Part shown: piece after piece, positions 1-14,918 of the stretch
How the letters are laid out: each line of letters opens with the position of its first letter
Position numbering within the stretch: position 1 is the stretch's first letter
Assembly (NCBI GenBank): GCA_049320885.1
Contig: JBMORA010000031.1
Span: 32,001-96,000, forward strand
DNA: 64,000 nt
Direction: 5' to 3'
Origin: Thermodesulfobacteriota bacterium
Lineage (GTDB): Bacteria > Desulfobacterota > Desulfobacteria > Desulfobacterales > SURF-7
Notes under the pieces: model-generated
The model's database searches: none
What the model saw: only the letters and a program-made list of their open reading frames with translations
Told to the model about the DNA's origin: nothing
Position numbers and translations under genes: made by a program

Positions 1-1375
1 GGAGATCCAGCGTAAAAAACCGGCCGTGAATATCCTCCTTGTCCCGCCAATATTTTTCCAGGCCGATTTTCCCGCCGCAGGTGAGAAACGGTGTCGGGTC
101 CCCGCTGCCGCCCGTGGCCAACTGAAAGCCGCTCAGTTCATAATTCTCCTCATCACTGCCTTGATCGAAAAACCGGACGCCCGCCATGACTCGCGGCTCA
201 CGGCCTTTCATCAAATCCCGTTCCAGGGAGGATGCTCCGATGTTTCCGGGTTGATAGGCCAGGGCCTTACGGGAATGATGGATGGCCATGTCGTTGTCGC
301 CTTTCCAGGCGTAGGCATTGGCCAGCCCCTGGTGGGCCGCGGGATTACCGGGCTGCCGCTGCAGGATGACATGGTACTGGGCAATGGCCTTGTCCAGGTT
401 TTCCTTCCGGGAGCCCAGCAGCCGGGCGTATTTCAAGCGGATATCGACCCTGCCCGGATGCTTCCCGACCAGTTTTTCATATTGGCCGGCGGCCTGTTCG
501 TAAGTGGTCTTTTCACCGGCCAGCAGCTCCGCATATGCCAGCCTGGTATCCAGACGATCCCGTCTCTTCAACACGGTTTCGAACTGGATTTTGGCGCTGT
601 CGAAATGACTGCCGGTCCTGGCCAGGGCCTTGGCATATTCCTCCCGCATATCCAGATCTCCCGGGTATCGGTCCACCAGCTTGCGGTACTGGGAAACCGC
701 ATCTTTTCGATGGGCGGCTTCTTTTGCATACAGGCGGGCCAGTTGGAGATTGATTTCCCGGTCCCCGGGATATTTCCGGGCGATTTTTTCATATTCGGCG
801 ATGGCCTCCTTGCGGTAGCGGCCATCCCAGAGCAGCAGTTTCCGGTATTCGGCGTTGAGGACTTTGTTTTCGGGGTTGGAAGCGCCCAGTTTCCGATATT
901 CTTCCACCGCCTCGCCCATGGTTTTTTTATCCGCCGCCAGCAATTTGGCCAGTTTATGACGATTGACCCGGTCCTCCCGGACCGCCAGGCCCATGCGGTA
1001 ATATTTGATGGCGTCCTTTTTACGGTAGGCATACCGGGACCACTCGAGGAACCCGGCCTGTTTGAAGGCGATCTCGGCATCCTTTGGAAACCGCTCCAGA
1101 TAGCGGTCATATTGCTCGATGGCCTTATCGGTCAACCCCTCGGCTTCGTAGGCCTTGCCCAGCAGCCGCATGGCTTCCGGATCGTCCGGCTTGATTTCGA
1201 CAAGTTTCTCAAAGGCTTCGATGGCGGCCTTGTAATTGTGAATGCGCATATTGGCCTTGCCCCTGGACATGTACCAGGACTCCTTCAGCTCCCCGCCGTA
1301 AAGCGGCCCGGCCGAGAGCAGCAGCGACCAGAGAAAAACCAGGCGAAAAGCCGTCAGAGAAAGCGGTCCCTTCAT
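1..1375 (-). CDS. TPR-repeat periplasmic protein with start of a probable C-terminal outer-membrane beta-barrel (BcsC/PgaA-like secretion scaffold); runs off the left edge
   Basis: Hand translation from ATG at 1375 (4 nt after the stop of the synthase gene): MKGPLSLTAFRLVFLWSLLLSAGPLYGG (signal peptide), then many TPR-like repeats (AAIEAFEKLVEIKPDDPEAMRLLGKAY; KAIAQYHVILQRQPGNPAAHQGLANAYAW). No stop found before base 1, so it is absent from the ORF track. Confidence 0.8.
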   Translation of the reverse strand, partial: MKGPLSLTAFRLVFLWSLLLSAGPLYGGELKESWYMSRGKANMRIHNYKAAIEAFEKLVEIKPDDPEAMRLLGKAYEAEGLTDKAIEQYDRYLERFPKDAEIAFKQAGFLEWSRYAYRKKDAIKYYRMGLAVREDRVNRHKLAKLLAADKKTMGEAVEEYRKLGASNPENKVLNAEYRKLLLWDGRYRKEAIAEYEKIARKYPGDREINLQLARLYAKEAAHRKDAVSQYRKLVDRYPGDLDMREEYAKALARTGSHFDSAKIQFETVLKRRDRLDTRLAYAELLAGEKTTYEQAAGQYEKLVGKHPGRVDIRLKYARLLGSRKENLDKAIAQYHVILQRQPGNPAAHQGLANAYAWKGDNDMAIHHSRKALAYQPGNIGASSLERDLMKGREPRVMAGVRFFDQGSDEENYELSGFQLATGGSGDPTPFLTCGGKIGLEKYWRDKEDIHGRFFTLDL

Positions 1376-1379
1376 AGCG

Positions 1380-4300
1380 TTATGATCCTTCTTTCAGGCG
1401 GAATCCGACGCGAAACACCAGCGGCGCCATTTTCTGTTGATAAACAAGTTCCATTTCCATGGTCCCGGCCTCCTGGTTTCCCAACATCCATTTTTCGTTC
1501 CCTTGAATTGCCGGGGTGAAAACCAGAAATCCCCTGCCGGCCGCGGACCGGTTCCGCAGAAGGGCGGCGACCCGCCGCCGGCCGTTGGCCAGGCGCATGA
1601 AAGTAAGGCTTTTATATCGGACCTCGGAGCGTTTCAAGACCATTGAGGAAGAAAAGCAGGAAAAAATGCCCCGGATGAAATAAAACCCCATCAGGAGATT
1701 GCTGCGGGTGTGTTCCCCGTGGACGTCTTCCCAGGTGGCCGGGTCCGCGAAGGTGCGCAGCAGGAGTTGATTGCGATCCCCGGGGTCCCGGAATTGGAAA
1801 CAAAATCCGCACCGGCTGCGGCCGCCTTTTTCCCGGTCGTGATAGACCAATCTTGCGGGAATGCGCAGCGGCTCCGCTGCGAACAGGGTCAACTCCACCG
1901 CCCCGGGAATCCGGTCCTCCGGTCCGGTCCGGAAGGACAAACCCGTGAGGCTGATGTCGCTGGTGGCGGCGCTGAGCGAGACACCACCGGACGTGAGGGT
2001 GAACGGAATGGAAACCCGCAGTCTGTCGGAAGCGCGCCTTTGGGGACGCTCCCAGGCAACCAGCAGGGCCGCCGAAAGCAGCAGCATATTGTAAACGGCC
2101 CATCCCAGGTTGAAAAGATAGGCATCCTTTTCGATTTCGAAATAATAGAATTCCGCCACGCCCTTGATGATGGCCACGGCGTTGATCACGGCCATCAGCA
2201 GCGTGACGGCGGAGGAGGAGAAATCAAACCGGCGCCGGTCCGAGACGATGCCCTTGGGGGTCACCTTGAAGCCCAGGCTTCCGGGCAGCAGCAGGGAGAA
2301 CATGGACAGAAACAGCGGGAAGCAGACCGCCTTCTCGTAAATCACGCCCCAGAACATCCGGGGCCATTTGCGCAAAAGCGCTCCCGAGAGCAGGGGCAGG
2401 CAGATCATGTAGGGCAGCATGTAGGCCAGCAGCACCGATACATCCGCCAGAATCGGATGGAGATGAAACAGCAGATAATACAACGGCGTGATCCAGAAGA
2501 TGACCCGCACCACAGGAAAAAAGAAGTAATACAGGGAGGCGAAATAGCCGAACCGATGCCGAAGGCCCAGGCCTTTCCGGACCAGGGGATTGTCGCGGAA
2601 AAAAATCTGCAGGCAGCCCTGCATCCAGCGGCGCCGCTGCACGATATAGGAGGAGTAGTTTTCCGCGGTCAGGCCCACGGCGAGATCCTTGTCCACGAAG
2701 ACCGATTCGTAGCCCCTGGCGTGGAGATGCTGACTGCTGTGAATATCCTCGGTGATGCTCATCAACTGGAAGCCGCCGATATGCTCAAGCGCCGATCTCC
2801 GGAACACGGCCCCGCTGCCCACGAAAAAGGCCCCTTTCCATCCGTCCCGGCCCCCCTGGATTCCGTGGTTGAACATGTCCTGCTCGTTGGGGATCAGGCC
2901 TTCGCAATGAAAGGCGCGCTGAAAAATATCCGGATTGTAGAAATGGTGGGGGGTCTGGACAACGCCGACTTCGGAATTCTGGAAAAAAGGCACGGTTTCA
3001 TCCAGGAAGCTGGCCACCGGAATGTGATCGGTATCGAAGACCACCACCAGTTCCCCCCCGGTCAGGGACAGGGCGTTGTTCAGATTGCCGGCCTTGGCGT
3101 GTTGTTTCGGCCCTTTGATATAACGGGCACCGCAACTCCCGGCCAGCGCGGCCACTTCTTGCCGGTGGCTGTCGTCCAGCACGAAAACGTTCTTGTTCCG
3201 ATACCCCATGGAACAAGCGGCCAGCAGGGTTTTTTCGAGGATGTCGAGGCTTTCGGAATAGATGGGAATGTACACATCCACGGATGGGCAGTAGTTTTCC
3301 GGTTGTTGCGGCAGCTCCCGTTTCCGCTTTTTCAGACCGACCTGCAGCAGCAACAGGAAAACCGTGGACAGGCAATAGAATTCGGCGGCCAGCAGGGAAA
3401 TGCTGATAAAGGGACCGAGGGCTTCCAGAAAATTGAGCGAACACGCAACCCGCCAATTCAGGTATCGCAGACACAGGGCGAAGCCGGTGATCAGGAATCC
3501 GGCCTTGAAAAACGCATACCGGTCGAGGCCTTCCCAGCGGGAAAGCAGAAACAGGGCCAAACAGGCCATGGAGAGATGCAAAGGGAAATGGCTCCGAAAA
3601 CCGCGAAAATCAAACGGTTTCAGGAAGTCGAAAAAATCCGTCAGATCACGCGCCACATGAACCTGCAGCGCCCGATCGAACCACAGCCAGTTGTGGAGAT
3701 AATACGGAGTATCCTTCCCGGCCCTGGCCTTCCGCCATAACTCGCCGAGCTTGTGCTCACTCAATTGCCGGGCAAGATCCGGATCACCGATGGCGGCCAG
3801 GGAACGCACCGTGGCGTACAAAGGGAGCGCCTCGAACCGGGACTTCGATTTGCCGTCGATGGTATAGCGGTCATCGAACCGCCGCCGGTTTTGCCATTCG
3901 GATTTCCAGAAAGCCAGCATCCGGCCGATCAACTCGGTTTTGTTCCGGCCATGCCAGTAATCATCCACGGCCACCCGCCAGTAAATGGGAAACGCATCGT
4001 AACTGAAATCGGCCTTCCGCCCCTTTCCCGGTTTCATCAGCGTCGGTTTACCGGTCTTGCGGTCCAGATAGACGATTTCCGGCGGCAGGGGCAGTTTTTC
4101 CTGCAGGAAAATCCATTCCAGGATTTCATAGGAGGAAACCACCAGTTCCTTCCAGGGATGTTCCTCATCCACCTCGGCAAACAATTCATAGGCGTAGGGC
4201 GCCAGATAGGCAACGTGGACGGTGGGAAACGCCTCCTGGAGACTCCAGTTCCCGGCGGTGGGATAGTATTTGTCCTGGAGCCGAATGACCTCGTTTCTCC

Positions 4301-4766
4301 AGATGTCCTGAATGATCCTACGGGCGTCATCCCGGTATGCAGCCGTGGAGAATTTTTCCGCCGCCAAAAGGAGGGCCAGGGCGATATCCGTATCTGCATC
4401 CGTGGCGGAATTGCGGTCCTGTTTCCATTTCCAGGCGAACAAGTGATCCCCCCGGACCATCAGATTCTCCCGTGTCCACTGGTAGACCTGTTTGAAGGTC
4501 CGGTGATCGTTGGACCAGACCGCCCGCAGCAGGGCGTAGCCCTGCCCCTCCGAGGTCGTGATGTTGTTCTCGTCGAGACTGATCACCCGACCTTCCCGGA
4601 TATACGTGTATTTGTAGAAACTCCACAGTTCGTGAAGGCTGTTGACCAGGGCATGGGATTTCCCGGCCGGCGCCGCCGCCAGGGGAAGCGGGGAAGGCAG
4701 GAGCCAGAAGGCGGCGGCCAGCAGCGGGATGGTTACAAGTGGATGTGACAATACAATTCTGTTCAT
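1380..4766 (-). CDS. bcsA: GH8 endoglucanase (BcsZ-like) fused to cellulose synthase catalytic subunit (GT2) with C-terminal PilZ domain(s)
   Basis: Signal peptide; GH8 motifs TTSEGQGY, SATDAD, SYDA; TM helices; GT2 motifs LDD, HAKAGNLN, FDTDH, QTPH, FFVGS, TED, QRRRW; PilZ RASDR and DISLTG. Confidence 0.92.
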   Translation of the reverse strand: MNRIVLSHPLVTIPLLAAAFWLLPSPLPLAAAPAGKSHALVNSLHELWSFYKYTYIREGRVISLDENNITTSEGQGYALLRAVWSNDHRTFKQVYQWTRENLMVRGDHLFAWKWKQDRNSATDADTDIALALLLAAEKFSTAAYRDDARRIIQDIWRNEVIRLQDKYYPTAGNWSLQEAFPTVHVAYLAPYAYELFAEVDEEHPWKELVVSSYEILEWIFLQEKLPLPPEIVYLDRKTGKPTLMKPGKGRKADFSYDAFPIYWRVAVDDYWHGRNKTELIGRMLAFWKSEWQNRRRFDDRYTIDGKSKSRFEALPLYATVRSLAAIGDPDLARQLSEHKLGELWRKARAGKDTPYYLHNWLWFDRALQVHVARDLTDFFDFLKPFDFRGFRSHFPLHLSMACLALFLLSRWEGLDRYAFFKAGFLITGFALCLRYLNWRVACSLNFLEALGPFISISLLAAEFYCLSTVFLLLLQVGLKKRKRELPQQPENYCPSVDVYIPIYSESLDILEKTLLAACSMGYRNKNVFVLDDSHRQEVAALAGSCGARYIKGPKQHAKAGNLNNALSLTGGELVVVFDTDHIPVASFLDETVPFFQNSEVGVVQTPHHFYNPDIFQRAFHCEGLIPNEQDMFNHGIQGGRDGWKGAFFVGSGAVFRRSALEHIGGFQLMSITEDIHSSQHLHARGYESVFVDKDLAVGLTAENYSSYIVQRRRWMQGCLQIFFRDNPLVRKGLGLRHRFGYFASLYYFFFPVVRVIFWITPLYYLLFHLHPILADVSVLLAYMLPYMICLPLLSGALLRKWPRMFWGVIYEKAVCFPLFLSMFSLLLPGSLGFKVTPKGIVSDRRRFDFSSSAVTLLMAVINAVAIIKGVAEFYYFEIEKDAYLFNLGWAVYNMLLLSAALLVAWERPQRRASDRLRVSIPFTLTSGGVSLSAATSDISLTGLSFRTGPEDRIPGAVELTLFAAEPLRIPARLVYHDREKGGRSRCGFCFQFRDPGDRNQLLLRTFADPATWEDVHGEHTRSNLLMGFYFIRGIFSCFSSSMVLKRSEVRYKSLTFMRLANGRRRVAALLRNRSAAGRGFLVFTPAIQGNEKWMLGNQEAGTMEMELVYQQKMAPLVFRVGFRLKEGS

Positions 4767-4834: not shown

Positions 4835-5725
4835 TTACCAGTGGGGCTGGTTCCCGATTCTTTTTCCCATGATTTCCAGAGTGTCCGTTACCACCATGAA
4901 GGTCTGGGGATCCATACGACGGATCAGTTGTTTCAGACGGGCCAGTTCCTGAAAGGTAATCACCGTATACAGGATTTTTTCCTCCTGGCCGGAATACCCG
5001 CCCTCCCCCGGGATCACCGTGACGCCGCGCTTGATTTCGTTCATGATGCCGTCGGCGATCTTCCGCCATTGCGGGGAAATGATCAGCACCGCCTTGCGCT
5101 GGCTCAGCCCGGTCACCACCAGATTGATGATCCGGGAGGATACGAAAATAAAAATCAGGGTATACAGAGCGCTCTCCAGGGAAAAGAGCAACCCGGCGGC
5201 GGCCAGCAGCAGAAAATTGAAGGCCAGCACCGTGCTCCCGATCCGGATGGAGAAGCGTTTCATCAGAATGATGGACAGGATATCCGTGCCGCCGGATGAA
5301 CCGTAGGAGCGCAACGTGATCCCGGCGCCGGCGCCGAACAGAATCCCGGCCAGCAGCGCGCTCAAAAGCGGATCATGGACGTCAAAGGGGACCTGAATCC
5401 AGGATACCGCCAGGGTGAACATCAGCATTCCCACCAGGCTGTAGTAGAAAAACCGCCGGCTGACATAAATCCACCCCAGGACGAACAGGGGGATATTCAG
5501 GAGGAAATACAGGAGGCCCATATCCCAGGACGGCAGGATGAAATACACCAGCATGGCCAGCCCGGTCACGCCGCTGCTGATGAACTGCCTGGGAATCAGG
5601 ATGCCGTTCACCGCCAGGGCGCAGAGCAGGCTGCCGGCCAGCATGAGCGCCAGGTTCCAGGCGATAACGCCGGGGGATGAGCTGCCGGCTTTTTCAACCG
5701 AAATCGTTTTTTCGTCGGATGTCAT
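4835..5725 (-). CDS. YitT family membrane protein (DUF161/DUF2179)
   Basis: GVTG, LNIPLF, SSGGTD, RGVT...GEGGYS, DPQTFMVV motifs; multiple TM helices. Confidence 0.9.
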   Translation of the reverse strand: MTSDEKTISVEKAGSSSPGVIAWNLALMLAGSLLCALAVNGILIPRQFISSGVTGLAMLVYFILPSWDMGLLYFLLNIPLFVLGWIYVSRRFFYYSLVGMLMFTLAVSWIQVPFDVHDPLLSALLAGILFGAGAGITLRSYGSSGGTDILSIILMKRFSIRIGSTVLAFNFLLLAAAGLLFSLESALYTLIFIFVSSRIINLVVTGLSQRKAVLIISPQWRKIADGIMNEIKRGVTVIPGEGGYSGQEEKILYTVITFQELARLKQLIRRMDPQTFMVVTDTLEIMGKRIGNQPHW

Positions 5726-6526: not shown

Positions 6527-7003
6527 ATGAACCGCGACGAACTGCTGCGCCTGGACAACCAGCTGTGTTTTCTCCTGTACGCGACCTTCCGGAAAATCGC
6601 CGGGCTCTACCGGCCGCTGCTGGATAAACTGGGAATCACCTATCCCCAATATCTGGTGATGCTGGTGCTGTGGGAGCATGGCCCCCTTTCGGTGGGTGAA
6701 ATCGGGGCCCGCCTGCACCTGGACTCCGGAACCCTCACGCCCCTGCTGAAACGGCTGGAAAAACAGGCGCTGGTCCACCGGAATCGCTCGGCGGAGGATG
6801 AACGCAGGGTCACCATCCGCCTGACGGAAGCGGGCGCGGCCATGAAGGCGTCGGCCTACAGTATCCCGGAAGCCATGATCTGCAACAGCGGCGTGACCGC
6901 GTCCCAGTATTGGACCCTTAAAAAAGAACTCGATTCCCTGCTGGCTCAAATCCCGACATCCGGACAATGTAAAAAGGAAACCATGCATCATGAGCATCCG
7001 TGA
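6527..7003 (+). CDS. MarR family regulator, OhrR-like
   Basis: LDNQLCF with N-terminal Cys, TYPQYLVMLVLWE, LDSGTLTPLLKRLE, DERRV. Confidence 0.9.
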   Translation: MNRDELLRLDNQLCFLLYATFRKIAGLYRPLLDKLGITYPQYLVMLVLWEHGPLSVGEIGARLHLDSGTLTPLLKRLEKQALVHRNRSAEDERRVTIRLTEAGAAMKASAYSIPEAMICNSGVTASQYWTLKKELDSLLAQIPTSGQCKKETMHHEHP

Positions 7004-8240
7004 CATGATGGGCTGCAGGCTCGCCTGCTCGACACTGTTACTGCTGATCCAACTGCTCTGGAACCTGCTTCCGGGACAGCCGGAAGCCGCGCTGTCGGCC
7101 TCACTTGGAGTGGACAACCTGGTTTTTGAGGGGATCGAAACCAATTATGCCGGCGATTACGACAAGGCCCTGAATCTGTTCCAGCAGGTGGAGACGCTGG
7201 CGCCGGACCATCCGGCCGGGGCTTTTTACCAGGCGTCGGTGCTGTTTTGGAAAAACAGTCTGGACCCCAACAACCCGCGTTACGACGACGACATCCGGCG
7301 CCTGCTGGAGCGGGCTATCGCCGTGTCCCAAAAACGCCTGGACAAACAGGCGGACGATCTGGATGCCCTGCATTACATGGGACTTGCCTATACGTATCTG
7401 GGGCGCATGGATGCCCACCGGGGCCGATTGTACGAAGGCGGCGTCCAGGGGGAAACCGGCCGGAAATATCTGGAAACCGCCATGCAACTTTACCGGAACA
7501 GCGCCTCCGGGAATGCCGGGAAAAACGAAAACGCCGCCTTGGTGTATGAAGACATCCACTTCCCCTACGGCGCCTATGTCTATTTCGCCGGACGGCTTCC
7601 CCGGTTTCTCCGGATGTTCAATTTTTTGTGGTTCATCCCCCGGGGTTCCGCTCCGGAAGGCATCGCGGCCCTGGAAAAAGCCCGGAAAAACAGCCGCCTG
7701 CACCATCTTGGCGCCACCCATCTGCTGGTAAGCATCTACGCCCATCTGGAACCCGGCAAAACGAGGGAAGCCCTTGCATTGTCCACGGAATTGACCCGGC
7801 GGTTTCCCGACAATCCGGTCCTGGATCTGCAGCAGGCGCGCCTGTTGCTGCTCAACGGGAAATACGAGGAAGCCCGCGCCCATACCCGGTCCATCCTAAA
7901 CAAGGTGCGGACGGCCCGTCTCAATTACGATGCCTGGGTTCTCAATGCAACCCGTCTGATCATTGCTGAGATCGACATCCACAAAGGGGAACTCCAGGCA
8001 TCGACGGCCGCGCTCGCCGACATCGAATCCTCGGCCAAACCCGAGATCGCCGCCGTGCTCTCGCCCCAGATCCTGCTGCTGAAGGGCATGATCGAGGACC
8101 TGAAGGGCTTGCGTCGGGAGGCGGTCCGCTATTACAAAGCCGTTCTCGATCAGGAAGACCGTTTTCGCAACCGGATGGCGGAGAAGGAGGCGCAACGGAG
8201 AATCGAGCAGGCGTTTTCCCCGGGTCTTCCCAGGGGTTGA
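6990..8240 (+). CDS. Exported TPR/alpha-helical repeat protein
   Basis: N-terminal hydrophobic signal; TPR-like helices (ALHYMGLAYTYLG; EAVRYYKAVL). Confidence 0.7.
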   Translation: MSIRDMMGCRLACSTLLLLIQLLWNLLPGQPEAALSASLGVDNLVFEGIETNYAGDYDKALNLFQQVETLAPDHPAGAFYQASVLFWKNSLDPNNPRYDDDIRRLLERAIAVSQKRLDKQADDLDALHYMGLAYTYLGRMDAHRGRLYEGGVQGETGRKYLETAMQLYRNSASGNAGKNENAALVYEDIHFPYGAYVYFAGRLPRFLRMFNFLWFIPRGSAPEGIAALEKARKNSRLHHLGATHLLVSIYAHLEPGKTREALALSTELTRRFPDNPVLDLQQARLLLLNGKYEEARAHTRSILNKVRTARLNYDAWVLNATRLIIAEIDIHKGELQASTAALADIESSAKPEIAAVLSPQILLLKGMIEDLKGLRREAVRYYKAVLDQEDRFRNRMAEKEAQRRIEQAFSPGLPRG

Positions 8241-12113: not shown

Positions 12114-14918
12114 ATGCGTGTTTTCTGGGGTTTTCTTACACTTTTGGTACCTTACCTGATATATCCCGGCCTCGGCAATGCCGCTTTTATTGGTTCCGTG
12201 AGTTCTTCCAAAACCACCGTGTGCCTCGAAAACTGTGACAAGATTGGTACACTAACGATTTCGTTTGATCCCGGCACGATCATTCTGGCCGGCGATTGGA
12301 TTACGCTCGATTTTTCGCTGGGAGTAACCAGTTGCGAAACGGCCAGTTACCTTACCTCGGGTCAGGCATCCGGGAATGTGGTGGTCGAGGCGCCCAATGA
12401 ACTTTTAATCAGATATACGCAGGGATCTTCCAGGACAAGAGTGGATTTCCAGGCCGGGGTGACAATTGGACCCGGCGGGACCTATTCATTCACCCTCGGG
12501 AAACAAGCCGTCAGTATCAATGAACATCAATTCGGCGGAACCACCGTTAATTCATCCATCAATGCCGGCGGAGTCAGCGGCAATAATTTTATGACATTCA
12601 TGCCTCCGAACCCCGAGCGCGCCGACGTCATAAGTTGCGGGATACCCGCGGCATTTGAATGTAGCGTCAGCGCTTCCACGACGAATGTATGCCTTGAAAG
12701 ATGCGATAATACCGGCTCCCTCGCGTTTATCATCGGCCCCGGTACGACAATTCAGCCCGGTGACTGGATCGCGATTGATCTGCCGACAGGTATTACAAAC
12801 TGCCAATCTGTGGATTATGCTGCCACCGGTCAACCGAGCGGAAGCGTCACGATCGTCGGATCGAATGAAATCCGGATCAACGGTTTGCAAGGAGACGGGC
12901 GGCTCACGGCGAGCTTCCAATCCAGTGTATCCGTGAATGCCGGCGGTACCTATTCATTCGGAATCGGCGGATATTCCATTCAAATGGATGCGAACCGATT
13001 TTCCGGCGGGCCGATTCGCGCCGATATCAGCAGCGGCGGAACAAGCGGCTCGAATTTTTTGTCATTCAGCACCACCACGCCCATGTTCGCAATTGCACGA
13101 AAATGCTCGGGTGCGCCCGAAGTGAAAACAGGCGATGTAAGCTCCTCCGGACCGACATTCGCGAATCTGAGCGGAATCATAAATCCGAAAGGGTATGCCA
13201 CAACCTATTATTTCAAGTACTGGTCTGACAACTCAAACGAAACCACCGCTGCACGGACGCTGGATGCCTCCTTTACGACCAATTCCGTATCGGAAGGCAT
13301 CTATAATCTGCTACCGGGTACACTTTATTATTACCAATTATGCGCAGATAACCATGAGGGAAATGCCGCCGGCCTCGTAAAAAATTTCCAGACGGTTTTC
13401 ATTCCCTTGTTCAAGCCGATCAATCCGACCCCGGAGATGCATGCGGAAACCCTTCCCGTAACGACCGGCCTTCAATGGGAAAACGGCGGCGGTGCTACTA
13501 GCTATGATATTTATTTTGGAACATCTCCCGCTTTAACGACAAGCCATTTCGTCGGCAATACAACTTCCACCACCTATTCTCCGACCCACCTGGATTATGG
13601 ACAGACATATTATTGGCGGGTTGATGCACGTGATTCAGAATATGTGGTAATAGGAGACACTTGGTCTTTCTCAACGGAACAAGCATTGTTTTTCGGGCAT
13701 GTCGCCTGTGATCAGTTATGGCAAACGTCGATTTGCATTGTTAACCCCAATGAAACGCGGACGCTGTGCGGCACACTTTTCGCTTATGATCAGCAGGGGC
13801 AACAGGTGGGCGCAAAAGTCATTTCTCTCCCGATCCATGGGCGGAGAGAAATGGAAGTTTCCAAGCAATTTGCCTTCCCGGGGAAAATCCGCTACATGGT
13901 GTATAAGTCGGATTTTGCGGCTAGTGGTTATACAACATTCCTTCAACCCGGAAAATATCGCGCCTCGATCCCTGCCGCCACAAAAATCAACAGCGGGAAT
14001 ATCTACGTCCCGCATGTGACGTCCGATGAAAATTGGTGGACCGGGATCTGTCTCCTGAACACGATGACGACCACGAAAGAGGTAACTATTCAATTTAATA
14101 ACGGCACCGAAAAGCGGATCATACTGGGGGAAAATGCGCAGGCGTCATTTACAATCGAAGATCTGTTTGGAGGAATGCATCAGCCGGACATCCATTCCGC
14201 GATTGTTAAAAACGGGAACGGCCTCGTTGCCCTACAACTGTTCGGCAGCAACTGGGACAGGGGCAGCGATATCTTATGCGGAATGGAATTGGGGGATAAA
14301 AGCGCATCCAATATGTTTTTCCCCCATGTTGTCAGCGATGCCACCTGGTGGACCGGAGTTGTGGCGTATAATCCCAACGATCTGCCGGTCAGCCTGACGA
14401 TTTCGCCCTATACAGATGAGGGCGTATCCTATCCAGTCCAGACAATCCAGCTTGCCGCAAAAGAAAAATACATCGGTGCGGTGGATCAGTTGGCACTTCC
14501 GGTCGACACGGCCTGGCTTCAAATTTCATCCACATATCCGGTTTCGGGTTTTGAGCTGTTCGGTACTCGTGATTGGAATCGGCTTGCCGGATATACCGTG
14601 GTGAACAAATCAGGGAAAAACGGAATTTTTTCTGAAATCAATAAAAAAGGATGGAAACGGATGGCTTTTGTAAATACCCAGCCCAATTCCGCAAACGTGC
14701 GCTTGAATGCCTATAACGACAATGGAGATATGATCGCATCCGAAAGCATCGTAATTGAAGCCTACTCAAAGAGGATTTCTCTGCCCGCCGCTTTATTCAC
14801 GGCAGATATTGCCGGCGCCACCCATATTACCTACACATCAGACCGGGCTGTAGTTGGTTTTCAATTGAACGAATCCGACGACAATTTGCTATTTGACGCC
14901 ATGACATGTCTTCCATAA
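12114..14918 (+). CDS. Large secreted multidomain beta-rich protein (two N-terminal Cys-containing repeats, FN3-like domains, four C-terminal repeats)
   Basis: Signal peptide; duplicated ~150-aa unit; LLPGTLYYYQLCADN and LDYGQTYYWRVDA FN3-like motifs; repeated (F/V)PHV.SD..WWTG motif. Confidence 0.8.
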   Translation: MRVFWGFLTLLVPYLIYPGLGNAAFIGSVSSSKTTVCLENCDKIGTLTISFDPGTIILAGDWITLDFSLGVTSCETASYLTSGQASGNVVVEAPNELLIRYTQGSSRTRVDFQAGVTIGPGGTYSFTLGKQAVSINEHQFGGTTVNSSINAGGVSGNNFMTFMPPNPERADVISCGIPAAFECSVSASTTNVCLERCDNTGSLAFIIGPGTTIQPGDWIAIDLPTGITNCQSVDYAATGQPSGSVTIVGSNEIRINGLQGDGRLTASFQSSVSVNAGGTYSFGIGGYSIQMDANRFSGGPIRADISSGGTSGSNFLSFSTTTPMFAIARKCSGAPEVKTGDVSSSGPTFANLSGIINPKGYATTYYFKYWSDNSNETTAARTLDASFTTNSVSEGIYNLLPGTLYYYQLCADNHEGNAAGLVKNFQTVFIPLFKPINPTPEMHAETLPVTTGLQWENGGGATSYDIYFGTSPALTTSHFVGNTTSTTYSPTHLDYGQTYYWRVDARDSEYVVIGDTWSFSTEQALFFGHVACDQLWQTSICIVNPNETRTLCGTLFAYDQQGQQVGAKVISLPIHGRREMEVSKQFAFPGKIRYMVYKSDFAASGYTTFLQPGKYRASIPAATKINSGNIYVPHVTSDENWWTGICLLNTMTTTKEVTIQFNNGTEKRIILGENAQASFTIEDLFGGMHQPDIHSAIVKNGNGLVALQLFGSNWDRGSDILCGMELGDKSASNMFFPHVVSDATWWTGVVAYNPNDLPVSLTISPYTDEGVSYPVQTIQLAAKEKYIGAVDQLALPVDTAWLQISSTYPVSGFELFGTRDWNRLAGYTVVNKSGKNGIFSEINKKGWKRMAFVNTQPNSANVRLNAYNDNGDMIASESIVIEAYSKRISLPAALFTADIAGATHITYTSDRAVVGFQLNESDDNLLFDAMTCLP

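Follow-up and report, generated by a model that had tools for sequence, protein, structure and literature searches.

A single-chain GH8–BcsA–PilZ protein and its BcsC-like partner: a candidate BcsB-free exporter of a cellulose-like glucan

Two adjacent genes at the left edge of the window—the whole stretch of DNA analysed here, 64,000 nucleotides long—encode what may be a cellulose-type exporter composed of two proteins. The first, P0001, is a single open reading frame of 1128 amino acids (aa) at 1380..4766 of the minus strand, the strand to which all window coordinates below refer. It comprises, in order, a GH8 domain, a BcsA-type synthase, a PilZ domain and a PilZ-like domain. The second, P0002, encodes a BcsC-like pore. 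We propose that together they constitute a c-di-GMP-controlled, BcsB-free maker and exporter of a cellulose-like β-glucan, a proposal built on sequence and structural models that we regard as evenly poised between right and wrong. Its direct basis is the domain order, the intact synthase motifs, the pairing of the genes, the folds and the absence of any BcsB match. A sequence-only reading had described P0001 as a GH8–synthase–PilZ fusion in one reading frame, and this observation is confirmed; the interpretation that accompanied it is, as a whole, partly supported.

The reading frame is unbroken from 1380 to 4766, and Pfam profiles find GH8 at aa 47-296 (103.7 bits; cut-off 24), GT2 at aa 494-775, and PilZ at aa 909-1002 (50 bits; cut-off 22.5). 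The motifs originally cited for these domains—TTSEGQ, ATDAD, SYDA, HAKAGN, DTD, TED and QRRRW—are all present in the translation. Compared with P0001, three public assemblies contain no insertion, deletion or stop. In one, X1, which may be the source sample, a single contig spans the gene; in the others, X2 and X3, both from one other study, 28/30 and 19/30 bins are covered, and the base differences number three (A540E, R410H and one silent). Among 68 loci from other genomes, the fusion is intact as one reading frame in 50, truncated by contig ends in 13 and broken in 5, the break never falling in the GH8–synthase linker. Homologous fusions in other genomes, together with the public assemblies, exclude an assembly artefact as the source of the fusion. 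The search for fusions returned 350 matches, and all 119 other matches listed contain both GH8 and GT2; they form a family found across several phyla.

P0001 begins with a hydrophobic helix (aa 1-32; 4671..4766), taken at first sight for a signal peptide. The helix stands, and a cleaved Sec signal is its likely identity; it may instead be an uncleaved helix that occupies the place of BcsA TM1. The segment is weakly conserved (majority 0.36, versus 0.61-0.80 for TM2-4), and by a crude pattern count over 63 homologues the N-terminus is AxA-like in 48, lipobox-like in 4 and neither in 11. In untrimmed structural alignments a low-confidence model helix at this end overlies BcsA TM1. The GH8 barrel (aa 36-375; 3642..4661) is joined to the first membrane helix by a conserved, aromatic linker and short helix (aa 376-395; 3582..3641), with conservation of 0.69 for aa 369-386. 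The linker is modelled as coil, with pLDDT under 50 at aa 377-383 and a model pTM of 0.69; the hydrophobic moment of residues 372-384 is high, yet they too are low-confidence coil. A BcsB-like amphipathic helix and anchor within the linker is unsupported: besides the coil in the model, the helix that comes next pairs with TM2 of BcsA, and comparison of A1 with a BcsB sequence showed no similarity. Residues 330-495 gave no usable match in the ESM Atlas. Profile and model alignments identify the three membrane helices that follow (aa 396-476; 3339..3581) as BcsA TM2, TM3 and TM4; the profile alignment to R. sphaeroides BcsA begins at residue 48, and model residue 387 pairs with residue 36 of 4p00_A. 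Sequence and structure alignments alike show the GH8 passing into the membrane domain at the outward-facing end of TM2, which bears out the earlier view of a periplasmic hydrolase joined to the membrane domain. Positive-inside charges lie at 409-420 and 477-495.

The hydrolase is an (alpha/alpha)6 barrel by Pfam and by structural match (Z 35-39 versus GH8 structures). Two enzymes tie at the top of the structural matches, CelA (1cem; Z 39.2, rmsd 2.4 across 324 residues) and the β-1,3-1,4-glucanase 5xd0. The catalytic Glu/Asp and the equivalents of D116, Y182 and W96 of GH8 endoglucanases are all present in P0001, and among the fusion matches listed E73, D123, D125, Y187, Y256 and D257 are kept in 119/119 and W112 in 118/119. 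The active site had been read as intact, and this is true of the catalytic pair but not of a conserved substrate-binding Arg. That residue, in the YDAxR motif of the −1 subsite (R246 in BcsZ, R281 in CelA), is P260 in P0001; it is Pro in 118 of the 119 fusions among the matches listed, and Arg in 80/80 of the nearest free GH8s. The change is paired with another, of the NPSY Asn to H184. Across 150 representatives the two positions, 184 and 260, covary (N/R 114, H/P 14, R/P 2), and 16 of the 17 with Pro at 260 have a basic residue at 184. In BcsZ and CelA this Arg binds the sugar at −1 and shifts its position in the course of catalysis, so GH8 activity could have been lost with it. Our best reading of these residues is, instead, that the fused domain is a rebuilt hydrolase, predicted to act in editing.

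The synthase core superposes on BcsA 4p00_A from TM2 onwards (P0001 387-1038 on 36-726; Z 36.7, rmsd 3.3, 643 aligned), a match that includes the GT fold and the TM3-TM8 channel. The cytoplasmic, processive GT2 domain (aa 496-724; 2595..3281) contains HAKAGN, DxD, QTPH, TED and QRRRW. It is followed, by alignment and model, by TM5-TM8, an interface helix and the FKVTPK gating loop (aa 735-904; 2055..2564). The family motifs D,D,D,Q(Q/R)xRW, TED, KAG, QxPH and FxVTxK are present, and show little or no variation among those homologues that extend across them. P0001 scores under the NCBIfam CelA/BcsA cut-offs (TIGR03030, 525 versus 699.1 bits; NF008558, 392.5 versus 992).

What linkage the synthase makes can be approached through the 33 marker positions of Oehme 2019 Table S8, which describe proteobacterial clades; mapped by hand onto P0001, 13 are cellulose-only (H581, D630, F648, Y810 and E811 among them), 7 are shared, 6 occur only in the (1,3)-containing glucan synthases CrdS/BgsA (Q616, Q629, R640, V649, A701 and Y707) and 7 match neither. 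N633 and A743 fit no clade of the table. The acceptor site departs from Y302 (to N633) and N298 (to Q629), and several channel-entrance residues differ, family-wide, from those of the cellulose clades. The same two-part machine might, then, produce a mixed-linkage (1,3;1,4) or other β-glycan, its channel and GH8 cleft having adapted together. In both enzymes the family-wide changes do gather where the sugar is contacted: the six CrdS/BgsA-type positions and the two unmatched residues in the synthase, and H184/P260 in the GH8; the tie between 5xd0 and 1cem points the same way. We consider this rather unlikely, however, given the 13 cellulose-only positions, the absence from P0001 of the bulky CrdS/BgsA residues at 299, 465 and 480, and the identity of the nearest solved relatives of the parts, which are BcsA, BcsZ/CMCax and BcsC.

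The first PilZ domain (aa 909-1005; 1752..2042; Pfam) carries R911xxxR915 and D937xSxxG942. R911 and E702 correspond to R580 and E371, described in PMC8892547 as the autoinhibition pair of R. sphaeroides BcsA; among the fusion matches listed, E702 is kept in 116/119 and R911 in 105/119. From R1046xxxR1050, N1072xSxxG1077 and six strands in the model, we infer that aa 1046-1124 (1395..1631) form a second, PilZ-like β domain; it has no Pfam match, and pairwise comparison with PilZ1 gave nothing significant. The genome contains 18 GGDEF matches.

P0002 (708 aa) lies 4 bases beyond the fusion gene. Its 5' part occupies 1..1375, and the gene continues 751 bases past the left edge (G000:C31:31249-33375). 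The protein comprises a signal, about 10 TPRs and a 16-strand β-barrel. It matches BCSC_C (38.9 bits; cut-off 23.5), and its model (pLDDT 94.5, 16 strands) has BcsC (6tzk) as best structural match (Z 30.9, rmsd 5.5, 353 aligned). The first 120 residues of the mature protein are the most conserved (0.75-0.78, versus 0.52-0.64 in the barrel). A bcsC homologue is present downstream, on the same strand, in 55/55 loci with DNA there, and no other neighbour, an HlyD-like adaptor included, is conserved across phyla. Promoter and terminator scans of the operon yielded nothing usable. This two-gene layout with a BcsC-type exporter agrees with the minimal machine that the sequence-only reading envisaged. 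TPR arms in the bcsC-like partners span 189-364 aa, an array about half the E. coli length or less; E. coli BcsC is reported to have 19 TPRs across about 150 Å (PMC11379886). With arms this short a continuous bridge across the periplasm is doubtful, above all in Nitrospira.

Short arms would also suit a product that is not a long polymer: a fully active GH8 at the channel exit might chop every chain into short, soluble oligomers that reach the pore by diffusion or remain in the periplasm, a logic like that of NdvB and the length-trimmed product suggested by the sequence-only reading. The fusion provides one hydrolase per synthase, the catalytic residues are invariant, and a precedent exists in a periplasmic GH17 ahead of a GT2, proposed in PMC10237404 to cut and cyclise. 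Yet GH8 enzymes are inverting and so cannot cyclise, a missing −1 Arg suggests that cutting is slowed rather than sped up, and a TPR and barrel exporter at all 55 loci is a design for exporting polymers; we judge the oligomer reading distinctly unlikely.

The opposite extreme, a catalytically dead GH8 acting as a glucan-binding guide and as a docking site in place of the periplasmic domains of BcsB, is very unlikely. The nearly universal Arg-to-Pro exchange speaks for it, as do the domain's position where BcsB would be and its status as the sole GH8 match of the genome, which has no free BcsZ. But the acid, the base, D125 and Y187 are invariant over about 50% divergence, and Pro at 260 is nearly always accompanied by a basic residue at 184. 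Moreover, export in E. coli, by the account in PMC11379886, requires cellulase activity rather than the BcsZ protein as such, and is lost when BcsZ is inactive.

A BcsB profile (PF03170), of a kind that misses highly diverged BcsB-like partners, found no match in the organism's own genome (98.2% complete), in 2/2 genus mates, or in 47/50 relatives' genomes (50 of 68 searched, most of them incomplete). The earlier statement that no bcsB lies upstream, or between the synthase and TPR genes, can be extended to the locus and the rest of the genome. A bcsB just past the left edge is excluded, for the remainder of P0002 and then unrelated genes lie there. The two BcsB loci examined among the relatives are separate bcsA-bcsB-TPR operons; the BcsB-match loci L071 and L073 were left out of the loci examined. 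Least probable of all is a system that is not self-sufficient, in which an unlinked, unrecognised membrane protein acts as BcsB: BcsA of E. coli and of R. sphaeroides is described as unable to do without the BcsB tail (PMC8892547), and diverged single-helix proteins can escape profile searches, but the cassette is patchy over many phyla with a third gene never common, one-gene forms occur, and plant and some cyanobacterial synthases function without BcsB.

The patchiness is evident close by, the cassette being present in 3/3 genomes of the genus and 0/15 in other genera of the family. Cultured carriers are Anaeromyxobacter oryzae Red232, A. terrae SG22, A. oryzisoli SG63 and Nitrospira sp. NS4. 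None of 692 plasmid records matching the protein covers 80% of P0001, and among RNA records no carrier was listed. The GH8–BcsA fusion was undescribed in the literature searched, mostly at abstract level; Romling and Galperin 2015, which may mention it, and a preprint's 752-sequence BcsZ survey lay outside that scope. Four 50%-identity clusters combine synthase fusion and exporter in one reading frame of 1517-1996 aa with an internal signal-like segment, the fusion running into the exporter at the C-terminal BcsA interface helix (aa 1023-1036 of P0001; 1659..1700). The trees need three changes for the one-gene form. Independent origins were nevertheless not upheld: a single origin is not rejected when L020 is omitted (AU p = 0.30; 22/39 rows kept), and its rejection with L020 included (AU p 4e-10) is an artefact of scoring L020, a one-gene form cut at a contig end, as two-gene.

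In the BcsB-free exporter that we favour, c-di-GMP binding to PilZ1, and perhaps to PilZ2, would break the R911–E702 tether of the gating loop; the GT2 would polymerise UDP-glucose and push the chain through TM3-TM8. BcsB would be dispensable because TM1, one wall of the groove for the BcsB anchor, would be lost or changed in the synthase, and because the GH8, attached at the outward-facing end of TM2, would fill the space of BcsB. The GH8 would be an endoglucanase that is rebuilt yet still active: it retains the acid/base pair, lacks the −1 Arg and has acquired a His at another point of the cleft. It would cut only occasionally, removing chains that stall or go astray and setting product free. 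The chain would next pass to the first TPRs of the pore, which are strongly conserved and would probably dock on the GH8, by analogy with E. coli, where BcsC docks on BcsB through TPR1 and the BcsB tip (PMC11379886). The barrel would then export the chain as biofilm or floc matrix. A bolder version is more doubtful: that the machine is self-sufficient, that the re-engineered GH8 replaces BcsB as periplasmic partner and pore dock, that the system can be encoded by a single gene, with an internal signal peptide at which signal peptidase divides the polyprotein between the two membranes, and that the product differs from cellulose in linkage or length.

The system bears on two questions: why an enzyme that breaks down the exported polysaccharide accompanies its exporter, and why BcsA needs BcsB. 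As BcsB is missing here and each synthase carries exactly one hydrolase, both could be probed by single substitutions in no more than two genes. If the proposal is correct, no smaller cellulose-type exporter under c-di-GMP control would be available for expression or cryo-EM, and in Nitrospira, Anaeromyxobacter and sulfate reducers the system would be a candidate source of biofilm and floc matrix.

The closest known systems are the proteobacterial Bcs machines (E. coli BcsA-B-Z-C and R. sphaeroides BcsA-B; 4p00, 9b8v, 3qxq, 6tzk). Common to both are all the motifs for catalysis and gating, regulation through PilZ, a GH8, an exporter built of TPRs and a 16-strand barrel, and a BcsA fold that extends from TM2 as far as the C-terminal interface helix. 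Canonical Bcs systems (types I-III) encode BcsB with bcsA, whereas neither the P0001 locus nor its genome has a BcsB match. In Bcs the GH8 is free, and according to a preprint (10.64898/2026.08.24.745826) E. coli BcsZ is not a stable member of the complex; in P0001 it is fused to the synthase. The fusions named in excerpts of PMC7112194 are BcsA–B and BcsZ–C, not BcsZ–A. P0001 differs further in that TM1 may be absent or replaced, a second PilZ-like domain is present, and the −1 subsite and channel-entrance residues are altered; TPRs number about 5-10 in the fusion systems and 19 in Bcs. Cyanobacterial XcsA-XcsB(HlyD)-TolC likewise combines a BcsA-type synthase and an endoglucanase without BcsB, as described in PMC12430437 and PMC8892547, but employs HlyD/TolC and a separate endoglucanase in place of BcsC and a fused GH8. 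Pseudomonad NdvB and the 'Orphan' GH17-TM-GT2 proteins, in the account of PMC10237404, also place a periplasmic hydrolase-family domain ahead of a membrane GT2. These proteins, however, have a GH17 and a proposed cyclic β-1,3-glucan product; in the P0001 system the hydrolase domain is a GH8, which is inverting, and PilZ domains and an exporter of the BcsC type are present. In ascidian CesA the hydrolase domain is a C-terminal GH6. That enzyme, too, is described as uniting a cellulose synthase and a glycosyl hydrolase domain in one chain (PMC8892547), but it is an animal enzyme, and PilZ and the outer-membrane pore, both parts of the system proposed here, are absent from it.

The 1128-aa protein P0001, in which a GH8 hydrolase, a BcsA-type synthase, a PilZ domain and a PilZ-like domain follow one another, is encoded in a single open frame (window 1380-4766, minus strand), as the sequence-only reading had it, and Pfam profiles match GH8 (47-296), GT2 (494-775) and PilZ (909-1002), all above cut-offs. 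Three public assemblies aligned to this frame contain no insertion, deletion or stop; one of the three runs is possibly the source sample, and the other two, from one study, cover 28/30 and 19/30 bins. Nor does a bcsB lie past the window's left edge, where one had been thought conceivable: P0002, a bcsC-like gene (708 aa; G000:C31:31249-33375, host genome numbering), starts 4 bases past the P0001 stop, and unrelated genes follow. Those at G000:C31:28261-31140(-) encode proteins of 164, 249 and 530 aa, which we take from their motifs to be NUDIX-like, Smr-like and a membrane protein with a pilin-like segment, respectively. Directly upstream of the fusion, on the same strand, is a gene for a YitT-family membrane protein by Pfam (window 4835-5725(-)), absent from the loci of other phyla. 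The window also encodes two secreted-looking proteins, a 416-aa TPR protein (6990-8240(+)) and one of 934 aa (12114-14918(+)), where local G+C is lower (0.48-0.51 versus about 0.58).

A GH8-junction search matched 350 of 8000 scored proteins and, among the matches listed, all 119 other proteins have both GH8 and GT2. A genome scan gave at least 68 loci, selected on score; they come from Nitrospirota, Myxococcota, Desulfobacterales, Fibrobacterota, Bdellovibrionota and one Spirochaetaceae-labelled genome. The fusion is intact as one ORF in 50 of the 68; contig ends cut 13, and the remaining 5 have breaks, which in no case fall at the linker. The pairing of synthase and TPR gene holds in every locus having downstream DNA (55/55), the P0002 homologue being the next gene in 50, fused in frame in 3 and in damaged assemblies in 2. 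No further neighbour common to different phyla was found across the fusion loci. Among 40 relatives of the host, the fusion occurs in both genus mates and in none of 15 other family members; a weak GH8 match alone occurs in one of 23 more distant relatives. The closest named relative is a genome labelled Desulfobacterales. The pair looks like a mobile two-gene cassette.

In some genomes the whole apparatus is one gene. Loci L029:9953-14962, L032:9983-14968 and L038:10010-14995 each hold one ORF of 1661-1669 aa, GH8-synthase-PilZ-TPR-barrel, a lineage of three 90% clusters in a targeted search. A representative search added the more distant P0301, P0302 and P0304 (lengths, in ascending order, 1517, 1684 and 1996 aa), each from one record; P0301 and P0302 have an added N-terminal domain before GH8 (about 170 and 260 aa). 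All one-gene forms are without the second PilZ, which a read-through error would retain, and so they look real. In all of them the segment linking the interface helix to the first TPR retains a hydrophobic stretch whose end is a small-x-Ala site; a signal peptidase cut, or an internal start, could deliver the pore to the outer membrane. On trees this form needs three changes, and a single origin is not rejected (p 0.30).

In the P0001 structure model (63 sequences in the alignment, mean pLDDT 85.5, pTM 0.69), residues 36-375 form a GH8 barrel (versus CelA: Z 39.2, rmsd 2.4, 324 residues aligned) and 387-1038 a BcsA body (versus R. sphaeroides BcsA 36-726: Z 36.7, rmsd 3.3, 643 aligned). Because the structural match aligns there, we equate the first conserved membrane helix (396-409) with BcsA TM2; profile alignment agrees. 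Its charges fit an outside-to-inside passage, which places GH8 on the periplasmic side. TM1 is either absent, the signal being cleaved, or is the N-terminal helix, with GH8 inserted in the TM1-TM2 loop. That helix, of low confidence, overlies BcsA TM1 in untrimmed structural alignments. Cleavage is favoured because the helix is poorly conserved and ends, by a crude pattern, in AxA-like (48/63 homologues) or lipobox-like (4/63) sequence. In two Nitrospirota loci the fusion has a further BcsA-type gene nearby that is not fused (L010:5158-7431(-) and L011:1736-4006(-)), with tandem PilZ motifs; these genes start at TM2, so TM1-less synthases probably occur both with and without GH8. P0001 keeps every catalytic and gating motif, and E702 and R911 are counterparts of the BcsA autoinhibitory salt bridge. 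The interface helix is followed by a second domain, of six strands, given no Pfam name on scan, with RxxxR and (D/N)xSxxG in about 100 of 119 homologues (16 are unaligned there). The host genome has 18 GGDEF matches. Elsewhere in this genome the synthase has two further GT2 matches, both distant, at G000:C1:323161-324120 and C35:1527-2249, with 28-29% identity.

P0002 joins a signal and some 10 TPRs to a 16-strand barrel (model pLDDT 94.5), and passes the Pfam BCSC_C cut-off. In structure it is closest to E. coli BcsC entries (Z 30.4-30.9); PelB and PgaA-type pores rank below. Across 44 homologues barrel length ranges from 301 to 333 aa and TPR-arm length from 189 to 364 aa, and conservation is highest in the first 120 residues.

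The GH8 residues E73, D123, D125, Y187, Y256 and D257 are kept in 119/119 fusions. The YDAxR Arg, which in BcsZ/CelA holds the -1 sugar and shifts in catalysis (preprint 10.64898/2026.08.24.745826; PMC8805304), is Pro in 118/119 fusions and Arg in 80/80 of the nearest free GH8s (those of 120 listed matches with <41% identity and >300 aligned residues, the other 40 being fusion-like, mostly fragments). The NPSY Asn is His, also in 118/119. The Asn and Arg positions, 184 and 260, covary among 150 representatives (N/R 114, H/P 14, R/P 2); we read this as a basic group relocated within the cleft of an enzyme that is probably active but altered. Among the matches listed, the closest free GH8s are 35-39% identical, the named ones from Parcubacteria and Vampirovibrionia, whereas solved BcsZ/CMCax are 20-25% identical, so the fused GH8 probably does not derive from proteobacterial BcsZ. 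The nearest GH8 relatives include proteins of 860-900 aa with a PMT_2 (GT-C) membrane domain then GH8 (P0318, P0321, P0324, P0328 and P0339; 5 of 19 scanned), an LPG_synthase_TM-GH8 protein (P0315) and a GH8-LysM protein (P0314). The 959-aa P0378 is a fusion in reversed order, with a different GT2 (QQYRW) first, GH8 last and no PilZ match. Two members have diverged: in P0306 the synthase motifs are changed, QxxRW being absent, and GH8 position 184 is Arg, and P0305 has lost both catalytic Glu and Asp.

Linkage positions (Table S8 of PMC6821405) were mapped onto P0001 by hand via profile alignment. The 33 mapped comprise 13 cellulose-only, 7 shared, 6 CrdS/BgsA-only and 7 unmatched. A cellulose-like glucan is the likeliest product, and one of different linkage a real possibility.

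In canonical systems TM3-8 make up the channel, and the groove that takes the BcsB anchor lies between TM1-3 (PMC8892547). PF03170, the BcsB profile, has no match in the host genome (98.2% complete), in two genus mates, or in 47 of 50 relatives' genomes scanned (50 of the 68), among them the complete Anaeromyxobacter oryzae chromosome. Four loci match; the two examined are separate bcsA-bcsB-TPR operons, and their BcsB proteins, as queries, match nothing in the host genome or the 68 loci. There is a small chance that a strongly diverged BcsB-like partner serves the synthase.

We give about an even chance to a c-di-GMP-gated, BcsB-free exporter of cellulose-like glucan with a tethered, rebuilt GH8 as editing hydrolase. 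This reading is favoured by the exporter gene being retained throughout, by the invariance of the catalytic pair and by the requirement of E. coli for cellulase activity, whichever cellulase supplies it (PMC11379886), while free BcsZ is only loosely near BcsA. Short TPR arms, the lost Arg and odd acceptor-site residues count against it.

Every part of P0001 and P0002 has a solved relative. Cyanobacterial synthases (PMC12430437, PMC8892547) are a precedent for working without BcsB, and NdvB (PMC10237404) and ascidian CesA (PMC8892547) for fusing hydrolase to synthase. A survey of cellulose operons took bcsA and bcsB as the minimum set and gives BcsA-B and BcsZ-C as fusions (PMC7112194). No account of a GH8-BcsA fusion was found in the literature searched, whose coverage is incomplete. 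The layout, apparently undescribed so far, is a real and conserved variant of synthase-dependent Bcs secretion.
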